IMG/VR virus record: IMGVR_UViG_3300044630_001234
Strand: one strand, 5' to 3'
Source: a virus
Length of the DNA stretch: 64,000 nt
The translations under genes and the position numbers were made by a program. Below the pieces are notes generated by a model, which did not search any database, was not told where the DNA came from, and worked only from the letters and a program-made list of their open reading frames with translations. This document shows, piece after piece, positions 14,322 through 21,005 of this stretch. The first letter of the stretch is position 1; each line of letters begins with the position of its first letter.

Positions 14322-14558
14322 TCAATACATTTTTTTAGGTAAACTTTGATCACGTAATTGCTTATTCCAGCGAGCCTTTGCGGCTCCTTTTTTACGTTTG
14401 CGTTCTGTGGTGGGCTTTTCATAAAACATCTTGGCTCGTACTGTTTCTAATACGCCCGAATCTTCTACTTTTTGTTTGAATTTACGGAGTGCGACATTAA
14501 GTGGCATATCGCCGACGATTACTTTATTGCCAAATCCTGCTTTGTTATTTTTGCTCAT
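14322..14558 (-). CDS. rpsU: ribosomal protein bS21
   Basis: [49 protein letters not shown] aligns along most of E. coli S21 ([40 protein letters not shown]...). It has a ~12-aa N-terminal extension. Confidence 0.85.
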   Translation of the reverse strand: [78 protein letters not shown]

Positions 14559-15777
14559 TCTTTACTTTTTTATCAAAAACCATGATGGCTGGCTTCCCAT
14601 CAATCGTATCTTTACTTATCCGAATTGATTTTAAACCACGAGCTACAAGATCTACCGCATCAAACTGATAAGGCATTAATATCTTTTCAATAATGTTTTT
14701 AAGGCCACGAGCGTTTGTTTTTAATTCTTTAGCTTTCTTAGCAATTTCACGTAAGGCATCTTGTTCAAAATCTAGATTAATGCCGTCTAATTCAAACAGG
14801 TACTGATATTGTTTGATAGTACTGTTTTTAGTCTCTTTTAAGATGTTGACCAGTTGATCTTCAGTGAGCTCATCCACATTGGTAATCAATCCAAATCTGC
14901 CTACAAATTCCGGAATTAATCCAAATTTAATAAGGTCTTTAGTTGTTACGTCGTGAAACACGTCCGGGTTATCTTCTACGTTATCTACATTTGCATGGAA
15001 GCCAACACTTCTGGCTCCAGTGCGTTGTTTGATAATTTTGTCAATTCCCACAAAGGCACCGCCACAGATAAACAAGATACTTCGAGTGTCAATCTCCTGC
15101 ATGTCGCTACCTGGATGCTTTCTTTTACTTGTTGAAGGTACCCGCATGATACTTCCTTCAATCATCTTGAGCAGGGCCTGTTGGACCCCTTCGCCGCTGA
15201 CATCACGGGTAATACTGGCACTTTCGCCTTTACGACTAATTTTATCAATCTCATCAATATAGACAATGCCGCGAGCAGCTTTTTCTAAGTCACCATCTGC
15301 TTCACTAATTAGTCGTGTAAGAATGCTTTCGACATCGTCACCTACATAGCCCGCTTCTGTAATGCCTGTAGCATCACAAATGGCAAAAGGTAAGTCTAGG
15401 TAATCCGCAATCTTACGTGCCATCATAGTCTTACCGCAACCAGTAGGCCCTAACATAAGCACGTTAGTCTTTTCAAGTTCGATTGTTTTACTGGGATTGT
15501 TAATACGTTTGAAGTGTTGGCTCACGGCTACGCTAAGAGCAATCTTAGCATCGTCTTGCCCAATAACATAATCGTCAAGGTACTCTTTTATTTTAACGGG
15601 GTTTAGTAGTTTAAGTGTATTGGGGAAATTTTTAACTTTCTCGTCTTTGAGTATGTCAATGCATAGTTCTGCACAGTCGTTACATATAGCGGCATTGTCT
15701 CCAACAATTAACTTCTCTACGTCTTCCTTGCTCTTATTGCAAAAATCACATTTGTGATTAGTTTCCGATTTTGTCAT
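14545..15777 (-). CDS. clpX: ATP-dependent protease ATPase subunit ClpX
   Basis: N-terminal C4 zinc-binding domain CDFCNKSKEDVEKLIVGDNAAICNDCAELC, Walker A GPTGCGKT, Walker B GIVYIDEIDKI and the sensor/IGF-loop region. Confidence 0.85.
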   Translation of the reverse strand: MTKSETNHKCDFCNKSKEDVEKLIVGDNAAICNDCAELCIDILKDEKVKNFPNTLKLLNPVKIKEYLDDYVIGQDDAKIALSVAVSQHFKRINNPSKTIELEKTNVLMLGPTGCGKTMMARKIADYLDLPFAICDATGITEAGYVGDDVESILTRLISEADGDLEKAARGIVYIDEIDKISRKGESASITRDVSGEGVQQALLKMIEGSIMRVPSTSKRKHPGSDMQEIDTRSILFICGGAFVGIDKIIKQRTGARSVGFHANVDNVEDNPDVFHDVTTKDLIKFGLIPEFVGRFGLITNVDELTEDQLVNILKETKNSTIKQYQYLFELDGINLDFEQDALREIAKKAKELKTNARGLKNIIEKILMPYQFDAVDLVARGLKSIRISKDTIDGKPAIMVFDKKVKNEQK

Positions 15778-16159
15778 TAAATGCTCTTTCTAAGAATGAT
15801 TCTATCTTAGTTATCCGATTCTGATTGATGAAGTGGCTAACTGCGGATCTGCTTTCGTCTCCGGTTTTGTAGTAGGTGTTTTTCTTACCTAGGATATATC
15901 CACTTAATTGAGCAGTGACATAATTGAGACTGCCTAGATCAATATACTTGTAGTCACATCTAGACAATGCGTAGAAAAACCATTCTAAACTTATTTCGTG
16001 ATCATAAAAATAAATGTTAATATGCTCAGTAAGATTAGCGTTGGCCAGCCATTTACTTACTACAGCTTGATCTTCATCTGATAGATGTACAAACATAATG
16101 CTGTACGATTCATTCTCAAAAAAATCAGGAGGGGTTATTAATGTTATTCTATTGTCCAT
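15758..16159 (-). CDS. hypothetical protein (133 aa)
   Basis: Track ORF immediately downstream of clpX. Confidence 0.5.
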   Translation of the reverse strand: MDNRITLITPPDFFENESYSIMFVHLSDEDQAVVSKWLANANLTEHINIYFYDHEISLEWFFYALSRCDYKYIDLGSLNYVTAQLSGYILGKKNTYYKTGDESRSAVSHFINQNRITKIESFLERAFNDKIGN

Positions 16160-17490
16160 TATATTCTTGCCTTAACTGCCATTATATACTCCTTGGGGAC
16201 ATCACGCAAGGATATGCGTTTAGATTTTACAAGTTCAATGTATTCTGCAACTTCTGGCGGAGGTGCATCGTTGTAGGGATCTAGATTGACGGCTGCGCTG
16301 GTTTCAAAATATTCTTCTTTGCTAATAGCGGTTTTTGTCCAAAGATCGCTTTCTGCTTGCTCTTCGTTTTGTACAAACAATGGTGTATCTGTGACAGTGG
16401 GTTCCGGGGAGACTACATCAACAACCGGTCCTTTTGGGCTGTCACCCTCCGCTTTATAAACTATTGGTTTCAGATCTTTAAAATGTGCAAACGGTTGATT
16501 AAGATATGGATGTTGCTCTAACAGAGATTTTGTAACAGTGGGTTGTTCGTTGTTTACGTTAATAGGGTCCTGTTCAATGTTACCCTCTGCAACTTCCTCT
16601 TCAATTTTTTGCATGGCCGCTTCTTTATCTAACTGACGAGCACGTTCTCGACCTTGGTCAAACCAATCTTGAACTGCTTGTTCTTCTTCTTGTTCTCGAA
16701 ACCGCTGGAAACTAATCTGACTTGCTAACAACAAAATTACTGCCATTGGATCAAATACTACAATCAGGATAATGATAACCCAAGTTACTGCTTTTTCTAA
16801 TAGACCTTCGTTGGCTTCACCATAGACAAACTGTGCTATGTATTTGATTGGGCCTACTTCGGCTTCTACTTTACGTACTTCTGCTCGAATAGGTGCGGCT
16901 TGGTCATTAAGAGTAGCAATAAGCTTCTGGTTGGCTTCAATGTCTTTGGCCACCGCACTGCGATCACGAGACTGAGCTTTGCGTATTGAAACCGCTTTGT
17001 CGGCACCTTTTTCATCTTGACTGCGACCCATGACTTGGTCAACCGCCTCATCCATTTGTTTAAGTTGCTTGCGGTTGGCTTCAATGTTCTCTTTTGCTGT
17101 TTTAATTTTTTCATCATATATTGCAATCTTACCCTGTACATCACCGCTTACTAGGCTTTGGTCACTGTGTGCTTTACTTAGGAATCCAAAGATACCCATT
17201 GACGTAACTATCATAAGCACTATGATAGCGGTGAATAGATAAATCCGCATTGACCACGGTGCAATACTCCAGTTTTGTTTGAGCCATAGTGTTGCTGATA
17301 TTTTACCCAGGCCTAATGCTATGCCCATGATAACTACAGGGATAACTGCGGCGGAGAAAATAGAAGTTAGGCCGAGAATACTGTAGTACTCTGCGACCAG
17401 TGATAGGAATAGTCCGCTAAACAGTGCTAGGTAGGCGAGGAACTTTTCATTTAATGTTGGTTTCATTGAATATTTATTAACCAATTCCAA
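16159..17490 (-). CDS. membrane protein with N-terminal TM helices, a long coiled coil and an acidic C-terminus (443 aa)
   Basis: Three hydrophobic helices. Heptad-rich region KIKTAKENIEANRKQLKQMDEAVDQ. Confidence 0.55.
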   Translation of the reverse strand: MELVNKYSMKPTLNEKFLAYLALFSGLFLSLVAEYYSILGLTSIFSAAVIPVVIMGIALGLGKISATLWLKQNWSIAPWSMRIYLFTAIIVLMIVTSMGIFGFLSKAHSDQSLVSGDVQGKIAIYDEKIKTAKENIEANRKQLKQMDEAVDQVMGRSQDEKGADKAVSIRKAQSRDRSAVAKDIEANQKLIATLNDQAAPIRAEVRKVEAEVGPIKYIAQFVYGEANEGLLEKAVTWVIIILIVVFDPMAVILLLASQISFQRFREQEEEQAVQDWFDQGRERARQLDKEAAMQKIEEEVAEGNIEQDPINVNNEQPTVTKSLLEQHPYLNQPFAHFKDLKPIVYKAEGDSPKGPVVDVVSPEPTVTDTPLFVQNEEQAESDLWTKTAISKEEYFETSAAVNLDPYNDAPPPEVAEYIELVKSKRISLRDVPKEYIMAVKARI

Positions 17491-18001
17491 ATATGCCGTC
17501 CCATGTGGTCTTCAAGATCTTAGGCCTACGCTTGATATTTGATTCATCATTTATATTGCCAATGGGTTTTTCACCAACGATTGCAACATAATCTTCAATT
17601 AATGAATTTTCGATACTAATGATTTCGTCCCATGGGGAAATAGTCTGAAACGGATACTTAGTTACATCATAGATAGTAATTGTGATAAACTTATGATCAA
17701 TATAAAGTCCGTACAGATTAAAAAATTCCTCTTCAATGATACGCCAATCTGATCCGCTAGACCCATTGAGTCGTTTTTTGTCCCAACTCTTGCAGTGTCC
17801 AATTTGTCGGTAAATTCTTTCGCCAAAATTTCTCGAGTTATCAGCACTCATACCAAACTTGATAACAATACCTTTATATACAATTCTATATAGATATTTT
17901 CGAACCTTAAATTGTTTTAAGATTATTGAAATATCAAAAGGGTCATTTAGTTTACCACAGTTGATAGTATGTTTAGGAATACAAGTCCAATCAATTATCA
18001 T
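17477..18001 (-). CDS. hypothetical protein (174 aa)
   Basis: Track ORF. Confidence 0.5.
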   Translation of the reverse strand: MIIDWTCIPKHTINCGKLNDPFDISIILKQFKVRKYLYRIVYKGIVIKFGMSADNSRNFGERIYRQIGHCKSWDKKRLNGSSGSDWRIIEEEFFNLYGLYIDHKFITITIYDVTKYPFQTISPWDEIISIENSLIEDYVAIVGEKPIGNINDESNIKRRPKILKTTWDGIFGIG

Positions 18002-20490: not shown

Positions 20491-20641
20491 AACTTTCTCC
20501 ATGATGTATATATAACGCCTTAGCCCTATATTACGTTGACACATTTGACGGAATCCGTAGGGCTTGTGGAGTCTCCGTCTAACTACAAGGTCTTTCACCT
20601 TGGCAACCTGCTATGCAGATTTACCCCTATCGGATACTATA

Positions 20642-20790
20642 TTTAATTAATTCTGCTATAGTTCAGCACCATACCAGAACCGTACATGCTTTCAGCAAGC
20701 ATTTTACATTCCCAATCGTTGTTAGCATTGACTACAACGTCAGCAGTTTGATACTGATTAAGTCTAACCCAAACACGATATTGATACATA
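20642..20790 (-). CDS. possible small ORF (~49 aa) downstream of csp, not in the track
   Basis: MYQYRVWVRLNQYQTADVVVNANNDWECKMLAESMYGSGMVLNYSRIN. Perfect AAGGAG 6 nt upstream of the ATG. Coordinates approximate. Confidence 0.3.
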
Positions 20791-20798
20791 CTAACTCC

Positions 20799-21005
20799 TT
20801 ACTTTACAGATTGAATGTTCTGAGCCTGTTTACCATTCGGGCCATTAATTACTTCAAATTGGACAAGTTCGTCTGTTTTCAAAGTTTTATAGCCCTCCAT
20901 TTGAATTTGGCTAAAATGTGCAAACACATCTTCACCGCCTTCGTCTGATACAATAAATCCAAAACCTTTGGAATTATTAAACCATTTTACTTTACCTTGT
21001 TGCAT
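20799..21005 (-). CDS. csp: cold-shock protein (CspA family)
   Basis: [35 protein letters not shown] carries the RNP1 (KGFGFI) and RNP2 (VFAHF) motifs. Confidence 0.85.

Follow-up and report, generated by a model that had tools for sequence, protein, structure and literature searches.

Huge bacteriophages are said to carry sets of genes with which they take over the translation of their hosts, and bS21 is the commonest ribosomal protein known from phages. Here we examine positions 14322-21005 of a 64,000-nucleotide (nt) stretch, one strand of IMG/VR record IMGVR_UViG_3300044630_001234 (hereafter the window), where genes for bS21 (rpsU) and the unfoldase ClpX are found together with a gene for transfer-messenger RNA (tmRNA, ssrA), an iron-sulfur (Fe-S) pair (iscU and iscA) and a cold-shock-domain protein (csp). 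A first-pass annotation had named these five elements and read them as one coherent, possibly co-regulated module for ribosome rescue and degradation. All of them are intact on the minus strand (Table 1), but comparison with related phages shows that the tightly conserved part is an overlapping clpX–rpsU pair with its upstream neighbours. We put the probability of the overall picture, in which two gene arrays would provide a host-dependent tmRNA, a ClpP-docking ClpX, a co-translated bS21 and optional cargo, at roughly 70%.

Huge phages encode bS21, often with an N-terminal extension; tmRNAs are likewise found in them, and in some cases SmpB and further factors of translation (Al-Shayeb et al., 2020; PMC7162821). 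The window resembles them in its bS21 with an extension of about eight residues, its tmRNA and a clade with contigs of more than 300 kilobases (kb), but the overlapping clpX–rpsU cassette is not described there and no SmpB, tRNAs or tRNA synthetases were seen in the window. Bacillus megaphage G encodes adjacent ClpP and ClpX (gp257-258) and, far away, a one-piece tmRNA with a tag ending in ELQVA (PMC12484599). As in phage G, both the tagging RNA and ClpX, which is about 50% identical, are phage-encoded; whereas phage G keeps the clpP-clpX order of bacteria and S21 is not mentioned in its description (PMC12484599), the window has clpX followed by rpsU, lacks clpP over its 64 kb and carries its two-piece tmRNA 3.3 kb upstream. 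Sinorhizobium jumbo phage AP-J-162 carries clpX, S21 and a tmRNA that are not adjacent, S21 being gp532 and clpX lying near gp547-553 (PMC11242549). The window shares clpX, S21 and a tmRNA with AP-J-162 and finds its closest isolate-phage ClpX in Phosso and Atu_ph07, yet it differs from AP-J-162 in that its genes lie close together, and from these rhizobial jumbo phages in the absence of similarity at the DNA level and in host class.

Two-piece tmRNAs are concentrated in aquatic phages, with 53 unique forms among 402 tmRNA-bearing genomes, and the ssrA of the OM43 phage Melnitz is permuted, of alphaproteobacterial type and associated with a glutamine riboswitch (Buchholz et al., 2022; PMC9004378). 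The window likewise has a phage-encoded permuted ssrA but, unlike Melnitz, for which ClpX and S21 are not mentioned (PMC9004378), its tmRNA best fits a betaproteobacterial model and no riboswitch was found. Freshwater Bacteroidetes phages of up to 331 kb encode bS21 among structural genes (TerL, the major capsid protein and a protease) and express it late (Chen et al., 2022; PMC9723584). In contrast, the bS21 of the window lies in a predicted operon with clpX behind sigma-70-type promoters, and the predicted host phylum is a different one. In Escherichia coli, ssrA, SmpB, SspB and ClpXP reportedly form a single tagging and degradation pathway. The window is similar in the layout of its tag (AANDxxY/F…LAA), with ClpX- and SspB-type determinants, and in the RKH, GYVG and IGF-type loops of its ClpX; it differs from E. 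coli in that the RNA is in two pieces and that the phage encodes the RNA and the unfoldase only, SmpB, SspB, alanyl-tRNA synthetase (AlaRS) and ClpP not being in the window.

The gene set itself is not new, each component having already been reported in huge phages. We found no description of an overlapping clpX–rpsU pair that keeps a conserved membrane-protein neighbour in two deeply separated clades and is accompanied by a two-piece tmRNA of probable beta type. What is new is thus the comparative result, namely that the overlapping clpX–bS21 pair is carried by a very abundant freshwater jumbo-phage lineage (at least 267 IMG/VR stretches) and has persisted across clades whose ClpX proteins are about 50% identical, with a membrane protein of the mem443 type upstream. 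Ribosome modification in infection can thereby be linked, in a testable way, to proteolysis or unfolding, and a Comamonadaceae host, once found, would give a tractable system for asking whether and why phage bS21 enters ribosomes. The comparison also yields a large covarying set of phage two-piece tmRNAs of probable beta type and a host prediction for an uncultured phage group.

An overlapping clpX–rpsU pair lies at the conserved core of the locus

The window ClpX protein was used as an IMG/VR query, and the best 80 of at least 267 related stretches, with ClpX identities of 65-94%, were examined to 10 kb on either side of clpX, gene presence being scored by tblastn with the window proteins; clustering was judged against chance through conservation and not through a probability calculation. 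Among these 80 loci clpX is present in 80, h133 in 79, bS21 and h156 in 75 each, mem443 in 74, the tmRNA in 56 and h110 in 49, whereas csp (21), iscU (15) and iscA (13) are found in few. The invariant unit is h156–mem443–h133–clpX–rpsU; the tmRNA is frequent but separable, and the isc and csp genes are variable cargo. The five elements therefore do not hold together as one module. The earlier claim that they are clustered rather than scattered stands firmly for clpX–rpsU and to a moderate degree for the tmRNA, but not for isc or csp, and their location on one strand, although correct, is uninformative given that the minus strand carries almost all long open reading frames (ORFs) of the 64-kb window.

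The phage bS21 passes the cut-offs of both Pfam PF01165, Ribosomal_S21 (53.6 bits, cut-off 27) and TIGR00030 (51.2 bits, cut-off 28.95). Its residues 17-73 align to ribosome-bound bS21 chains, for example 6v39 and 10fz, and it has the conserved core and a C-terminal LPKKMY. The ATG of rpsU lies 14 nt inside the 3′ end of clpX and has no clear Shine–Dalgarno (SD) sequence, and in 74 of the 75 relatives with the gene, rpsU overlaps the 3′ end of clpX by 8-62 nt. From this overlap and the lack of an SD sequence of its own, we infer that rpsU is made from one mRNA with clpX, probably with translational coupling. In bacteria the usual gene orders are clpP-clpX-lon and rpsU-dnaG-rpoD, so that adjacency of clpX and rpsU is unusual there. 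At the other end of clpX, h133 overlaps the 5′ end of the gene in 79/80 loci.

ClpX, bS21, IscU, IscA, Csp and tmRNA are all typical cellular genes, and one might ask whether the block is bacterial DNA introduced by contamination or chimeric assembly. We regard this as hardly credible, since the block is embedded, on the same strand, among tail-fibre and structural, ribonucleotide reductase and hypothetical genes, the same arrangement occurs on at least 80 IMG/VR contigs of up to 322 kb, and an identical ClpX is present in 31 blocks of a public assembly collection. In addition, the ClpX is only about 50-52% identical to its closest isolate-phage counterparts and scores 410-415 bits against solved bacterial chains, and a clpX–rpsU neighbourhood would be unusual for a bacterium. 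The window is phage DNA. Besides the block it contains genes for tail-fibre and structural proteins, ribonucleotide reductase and PstS, and many unknown ORFs; neither tRNA genes (ARAGORN) nor tRNA synthetases were seen in it. A DNA search of 50,697 phage records revealed no relative, only the conserved cores of clpX and iscU being matched at 65-70% identity, and there is therefore no cultured reference for this phage. As related contigs reach 322 kb in the IMG/VR loci and 367 kb in the protein database, the genome is likely larger than 300 kb, with the window covering perhaps one fifth of it.

A second, distant clade was recovered with ClpP queries, which brought to light a large family of ClpP proteins encoded on IMG/VR contigs of freshwater jumbo phages, the longest reaching 364 kb. 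At 17 of the 76 ClpP loci among the matches listed, clpX is located 3-5 kb upstream of clpP on the same strand and encodes a protein about 50% identical to the window ClpX. Fourteen of these 17 loci have mem443, directly or 1.7 kb upstream of clpX (264-470 bits), and eight have rpsU; the ClpX proteins carry IGF and GYVG, with RKH in 15/17. In these 17 clpX–clpP loci h133 is absent and there is no tmRNA within 10 kb, and none of the listed ClpP-family contigs is one of the 80 window-clade clpX contigs. Because mem443–clpX–rpsU also occurs in this sister clade at about 50% ClpX identity, the comparison points firmly to an association much older than the window clade.

A tblastn search with E. 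coli queries gave no homologue of ClpP, SmpB, SspB or IscS in the window, nor in the 10 kb on either side of clpX in any of the 80 relatives. The first-pass annotation had noted the absence of clpP from the window, which this search supports, and had concluded that host ClpP must be used. That conclusion is not safe, because sister phages carry their own ClpP and the window represents only about a fifth of the genome; a phage clpP elsewhere in the genome is possible.

ClpX retains the motifs for ClpP docking and tag recognition

Gene identities were assessed with Pfam and the NCBIfam/TIGRFAM cut-offs, and also with PHROG and chains of solved structures, whereas RNAs were assessed with ARAGORN and Rfam. 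The window ClpX exceeds the cut-offs of NF003745 (529.7 bits, cut-off 359) and TIGR00382 (498.2 bits, cut-off 370.75), while the HslU model scores 197.7 bits, below its cut-off of 362. The N-terminal C4 zinc-binding domain (zf-C4_ClpX) is recognised at 49.5 bits (cut-off 27), and the highest-scoring chains of solved structures are 6vfs (415 bits) and 8e91 (410 bits). Among isolate phages the closest ClpX proteins are those of Phosso and Atu_ph07, at 50-52% identity, with that of phage G at about 50%.

The protein has GPTGCGKT (Walker A), YIDEIDK (Walker B), GLIPEFVGRF (arginine finger), TNARGLK (sensor-2) and KRKHPG (RKH loop). In the first-pass annotation GLIPEFVGRF had been taken for the IGF loop that docks ClpP, but this segment aligns to E. 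coli GLIPEFIGRL and is the arginine-finger box. The docking loop is instead SVGFHA (approximately residues 257-262, within ARSVGFHANV), which aligns to E. coli GIGFGA and has the tripeptide VGF. Across the window ClpX and its 80 relatives, this tripeptide is VGF in 44, IGF in 36 and MGF in 1, so that a docking loop is retained in 81/81, and the loss of this loop, which would have spoken against the first-pass reading, is not seen. The CxxC…CxxC cysteines of the zinc finger are kept in 80/81, Walker A (G-P-[T/S]-G-x-G-K-T), Walker B, the GYVG pore-1 loop and sensor-2 in 81/81, the arginine finger in 80/81 and the RKH loop in 79/81. In proteobacterial ClpX the RKH loop recognises the C-terminus of the ssrA tag. 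This motif set is the signature of a ClpX predicted still to dock ClpP and to read C-terminal tags; such an enzyme could dispose of chains tagged by the tmRNA and, probably, of further specific targets.

In an alternative, possible though on balance doubtful, the job of the clpX–rpsU pair would be separate from clearance of ssrA tags: ClpX, perhaps positioned by mem443 and modulated by h133, would act on specific targets, and the tmRNA would be an independent rescue aid. Candidate targets include host bS21 or ribosome-bound factors, host defence or regulatory proteins, and phage replication or assembly complexes, on which host ClpX is known to act in the cases of lambda O and MuA. Such a role would fit the observation that the tight and deep coupling of clpX is with rpsU (and mem443) and not with the tmRNA, as well as conservation of the zinc-binding domain in 80/81, since in E. 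coli this N-terminal domain serves adaptor- and substrate-specific recognition. The clade-specific small alpha/beta protein h133, overlapping clpX, agrees with it too. However, no specific substrate is indicated, neither h133 nor mem443 resembles any known ClpX adaptor, and the RKH and pore loops typical for ssrA-tag recognition are equally conserved.

The two-piece tmRNA has an intact tag and determinants for charging

ARAGORN places the sole tmRNA gene of the window at 19049-19475, flagged as permuted and with the tag ANDSHFALAA, and Rfam tmRNA_permuted (RF04321) matches it with 111.4 bits (cut-off 47) over model positions 1-213. The best tmRNA-clan member at the site is beta_tmRNA (RF01850), which aligns over its full length (model 1-331), including the tag and the 3′ hairpin, at 83.2 bits against a gathering score of 84 (E 2e-24). 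The acceptor piece ends in CCA at 19385-19383 and is followed by an intervening segment of 104 nt (19382-19279), and the coding piece begins at G19278 (GGG…). The tag ORF at 19172-19140 reads GCA AAT GAC TCA CAT TTT GCC TTA GCG GCC TAA and encodes ANDSHFALAA, in agreement with the earlier statement that the tag ends in -ALAA; with the alanine carried by a charged tmRNA, the complete tag becomes AANDSHFALAA. No glutamine riboswitch or other Rfam family was detected in or near the window tmRNA.

The acceptor stem of the window tmRNA is GGGCCUG/CAGGUCC-A-CCA, with G3·U70 and discriminator A. Copies in the relatives were retrieved with a profile made from ARAGORN hits. All 7 bp of the acceptor stem are paired in 45/45 complete, unique copies, with an invariant G3·U70 and discriminator A and with eight compensatory variants of the stem. 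The T-stem covaries as well (GGGGG/CCCCC, GCGGG/CCCGC, CCGGG/CCCGG and others). Determinants predicted to direct charging with alanine are therefore present, which answers the doubt raised in the first-pass annotation as to whether the RNA can be charged. The tag frame AND…[L/M/I/V]AA is intact in 55/56 copies. These encode 28 distinct peptides, and where the tag is ten residues long, position 7 is aromatic. E. coli ClpX reportedly reads the C-terminal LAA, and SspB is said to read AAND and Tyr7; the conserved tag ends and the position-7 aromatic match these determinants. A tag-and-degrade relationship between the tmRNA and ClpX is thus plausible in terms of sequence.

We also considered whether the tmRNA might not work, being either an attP-like remnant of integration at ssrA or a decoy, consisting of the tRNA-like domain (TLD) only, that titrates SmpB. 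Islands and prophages often carry ssrA fragments, and extra partial tmRNA-like fragments are present in some relatives. A TLD-only molecule is also known from phage DS6A (PMC4131195). This explanation is nonetheless very improbable here, as both pieces are complete and the model is matched end to end, the acceptor and T stems covary around an invariant G3·U70 (45/45), the tag ORF is intact in 55/56 copies, and no integrase was seen among the ORFs scanned, which covered part of the window.

Some variation among the relatives deserves mention. The 3′ CCA is not encoded in some of their tmRNAs, which have ACCU or ACCG. The partial fragments, comprising the coding piece or the acceptor piece only, occur near a full tmRNA in some relatives (Table 1), and in L070 and L079 nothing but a TLD-like piece of 87 nt is present; such fragments may have arisen by duplication, may be scars of recombination or may act as TLD-only decoys. 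In public gene calls for contigs with an identical ClpX (L317-L319), the 756-nt gap between iscU and h110 has no listed gene, and IscA and the tmRNA of the window phage are therefore probably unannotated in the source records.

Transcription signals suggest two arrays in the interval

The window contains 13 near-consensus sigma-70 promoters (at most one mismatch) on the minus strand (2705-40319) and 2 on the plus strand, whereas shuffled sequences give 1.2. Five of those on the minus strand are perfect (2733, 10341, 13193, 21054 and 30441). Host RNA polymerase in its unmodified form seems to transcribe the region. Promoters at 21054 and 14325 bracket the interval 14322-21005 exactly, with none of like quality between them, and the latter would drive the next gene, which encodes an FkbM-family methyltransferase. 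An intrinsic terminator (19098-19079) is located at the 3′ end of the tmRNA coding piece and aligns to the 3′ hairpin of the beta_tmRNA model. Downstream of it, the eight genes from h110 to rpsU abut or overlap. SD sequences are found only at h110, h174, csp, h48 and MT348/orf441, the internal overlapping genes, including clpX and rpsU, having none. The co-regulation proposed as possible in the first-pass annotation agrees with the flanking promoters, but the terminator splits the block.

The same signals bear on whether bS21, ClpX, the tmRNA, IscU/IscA and Csp were selected as a unit, as a single co-regulated rescue and degradation module in which the tmRNA tags proteins for phage ClpX and host ClpP. 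Placement of the interval exactly between two consecutive near-consensus promoters would suit such a module, as would the RKH and [V/I]GF loops of ClpX, tags ending in [L/M/I/V]AA and the presence of the tmRNA upstream of clpX in 56/80 relatives. We consider it unlikely. IscU, IscA and Csp are each encoded by only 13-21 of the 80 relatives, IscU apparently being a recent capture from a host; a strong terminator follows the tmRNA, whose distance from clpX varies from 2.6 to about 10 kb with differing genes between; the sister clade has mem443–clpX–rpsU near clpP with no tmRNA within 10 kb; and relatives without the tmRNA or isc/csp still keep clpX–rpsU.

In the two-array picture that we favour, the interval would belong to an auxiliary region, probably an early one, that host RNA polymerase transcribes in an uncultured jumbo phage of fresh water. 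The first array, csp–two small ORFs–iscU–iscA–ssrA, would hold variable cargo and be closed by the tmRNA terminator, and the second, the eight genes h110–…–mem443–h133–clpX–rpsU, would hold the conserved core and presumably be co-transcribed. For charging, the tmRNA would depend on host AlaRS, and for delivery on host SmpB and EF-Tu, none of which is encoded here; it would free ribosomes that have stalled on broken mRNAs in infection, with AANDSHFALAA being added to the nascent chains. Phage ClpX would dock host ClpP, or a phage ClpP encoded outside the window, and read LAA-type C-termini. Phage bS21, if it enters host 30S subunits, might replace or supplement host bS21 there.

Several points weigh against this picture. 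Neither ClpP nor SmpB turned up with E. coli queries, whether in the window or in the 10-kb flanks of clpX in the 80 relatives, and a role of ClpX independent of ClpP is therefore conceivable, although the conserved docking loop argues against such a role. The beta_tmRNA score is 0.8 bit short of the Rfam gathering threshold, and the T-loop is non-canonical, being UGCGAAU in the window (19396-19402) and GGCAGUG in many relatives rather than UUCGAAU. The tmRNA is on the same strand as clpX and 2.6-10 kb upstream of it in the 56 loci that have it, among them roughly 50 of the 65 whose upstream flank extends over the full 10 kb. About 13 of these 65 showed no tmRNA within that distance, and in the window 3.3 kb and a strong terminator separate it from clpX; a hand-off from tmRNA to ClpX is therefore not demanded by synteny. 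Conserved gene order among related phages can reflect shared descent and not selection for linkage. Finally, the host assignment (see below) rests on one recently acquired gene and the type of tmRNA.

A more ambitious version, to which we give little credence, would make mem443–(h133)–clpX–rpsU a dedicated ribosome-remodelling device: a membrane-positioned ClpX would extract or degrade host bS21 or factors bound to the 30S subunit, phage bS21 would take its place, and the tmRNA would feed in tagged chains from ribosomes stalled on fragments of host mRNA. If true, this would be the first virus known to pair an unfoldase with a replacement ribosomal protein.

Other ORFs of the interval

Eight further ORFs lie between the named genes of the interval. 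In the product of mem443, several hydrophobic segments, a coiled-coil-like region in the middle and an acidic tail at the C-terminus can be read by eye, and family searches gave only sub-threshold DUF4407/tetraspanin-like matches. For both mem443 and h133, linkage to clpX is the lead toward their roles. The h174 ORF is found in 12/80 loci, often elsewhere in the locus, and occupies its present position only in the window and a few relatives, a pattern that resembles mobile insertion between mem443 and h156. The 152-aa ORF upstream of iscU has no Pfam or PHROG match.

Variable cargo and the predicted host

The cold-shock protein has its best NCBIfam match in CspD, at 102.7 bits and below the cut-off of 115.4. 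IscU has the three ligand cysteines and the LPPVK motif (GAPACGD, YGCGSAI and LPPVKIHCS). IscA reaches 136.8 bits with the IscA equivalog model (cut-off 150.6) and ends in …KCGCGESFRV, in which the CGCG motif is present. The phage IscU is 82-89% identical to its best 80 bacterial relatives, almost all of which belong to the Comamonadaceae or related Burkholderiales (Rhodoferax, Hydrogenophaga, Polaromonas, Acidovorax, Variovorax, Curvibacter and others), and the phage IscA is about 63% identical to that of Comamonadaceae. The bacterial order is iscS-iscU-iscA, of which the phage keeps iscU-iscA; an IscS beside the pair was not found in the window or related loci (E. coli query), and no ssrA is present in the bacterial IscU loci. 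Given this level of IscU identity and the shared gene order, iscU-iscA looks like a recent capture from an isc operon of the Comamonadaceae type.

The host is probably a betaproteobacterium of the Comamonadaceae, because of the kinship of IscU; the beta-type two-piece tmRNA, with its near-consensus tag, and homologues of h156 in Delftia and Acidovorax phages agree with this. Comamonadaceae themselves reportedly use a two-piece tmRNA.

Table 1. Features of the interval and its surroundings in the window, and RNA genes and fragments in related loci
Feature	Position	Strand	Details
PstS-like phosphate-binding protein	7281-8327		phrog_5385, 213 bits
DUF2828/DUF7788 protein	8402-9799		phrog_850 'RNA-binding protein', 500 bits
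Rv2179c-like 3′-5′ exoribonuclease	10785-11315
FkbM-family methyltransferase	13202-14248		just 3′ of rpsU
Near-consensus sigma-70 promoter	14296-14325	minus	TTGACT-18-TATAAT; overlaps bS21 stop; downstream block boundary
bS21 (rpsU)	14322-14558	minus	78 amino acids (aa); N-terminal extension of about 8 residues; Pfam, TIGRFAM
ClpX AAA+ unfoldase	14545-15777	minus	410 aa; NCBIfam equivalogs, zinc finger, motifs
h133	15758-16159	minus	clade-specific alpha/beta (flavodoxin-like); overlaps clpX start by 20 nt
mem443	16159-17490	minus	435 aa in public gene calls; clpX neighbour conserved in both clades
h174	17477-18001	minus	variable inserted ORF; no family match (Pfam, NCBIfam, PHROG)
h156	18003-18473	minus	147 aa in public gene calls; matches phrog_27048
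94-aa ORF	18385-18669	minus	tightly packed with h110 and h156
h110	18666-18998	minus	strong SD
Two-piece (circularly permuted) tmRNA gene	19076-19480	minus	ARAGORN, Rfam; probably betaproteobacterial type
Intrinsic terminator hairpin and U-tract	19079-19098	minus	8-bp stem, 5 GC pairs, TCTTTT tail
IscA/HesB-type A-type carrier	19456-19782	minus	108 aa; TIGR00049, 99.9 bits (cut-off 58.8)
IscU Fe-S scaffold	19754-20140	minus	128 aa; TIGR01999, 224.1 bits (cut-off 192.4)
His/Gly-rich protein, hydrophobic N-terminus	20140-20598	minus	120-152 aa; public gene calls
48-aa ORF	20643-20789	minus	gene call
Cold-shock-domain protein, CspD/CspE-like	20799-21005	minus	68 aa; Pfam CSD, 92.7 bits
Perfect sigma-70 promoter	21026-21054	minus	TTGACA-17-TATAAT; 12/12 matches; just upstream of csp; upstream block boundary
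tRNAs with anticodon CUA in relatives	L037 16024-16096; L065 3307-3383; L066 13468-13542; L068 14529-14603; L074 11480-11555; L075 11297-11372; L078 11748-11822 and 12375-12451; L282 1156-1230		ARAGORN label 'Pyl'
tmRNA-like fragments in relatives	L024 5640-5760; L026 4832-5205; L032 3062-3120; L039 3755-3809; L040/L042 5073-5132; L044 3648-3752; L046 4231-4435; L070/L079 ~3258-3344		coding- or acceptor-piece only

Additional features of the window and its relatives

The region also encodes a PstS-like phosphate-binding protein, a classic auxiliary metabolic gene product. A DUF2828/DUF7788 protein and an Rv2179c-like exoribonuclease are encoded a few kb downstream of rpsU, and given these two genes, a theme of RNA and protein quality control may reach past the interval. 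The FkbM-family methyltransferase is 76-81% identical to clpP-adjacent copies in distant jumbo-phage contigs (L241, L250, L263 and L246/L247). We rejected this identity as a sign of close kinship or synteny, since the neighbouring genes there are only 25-36% identical, and the methyltransferase gene appears to move horizontally between phage clades. Several relatives have a tRNA with anticodon CUA, an amber suppressor, which in L074, L075 and L078 lies immediately 3′ of clpX–rpsU; with these tRNAs, some members of the clade may suppress or recode stop codons.

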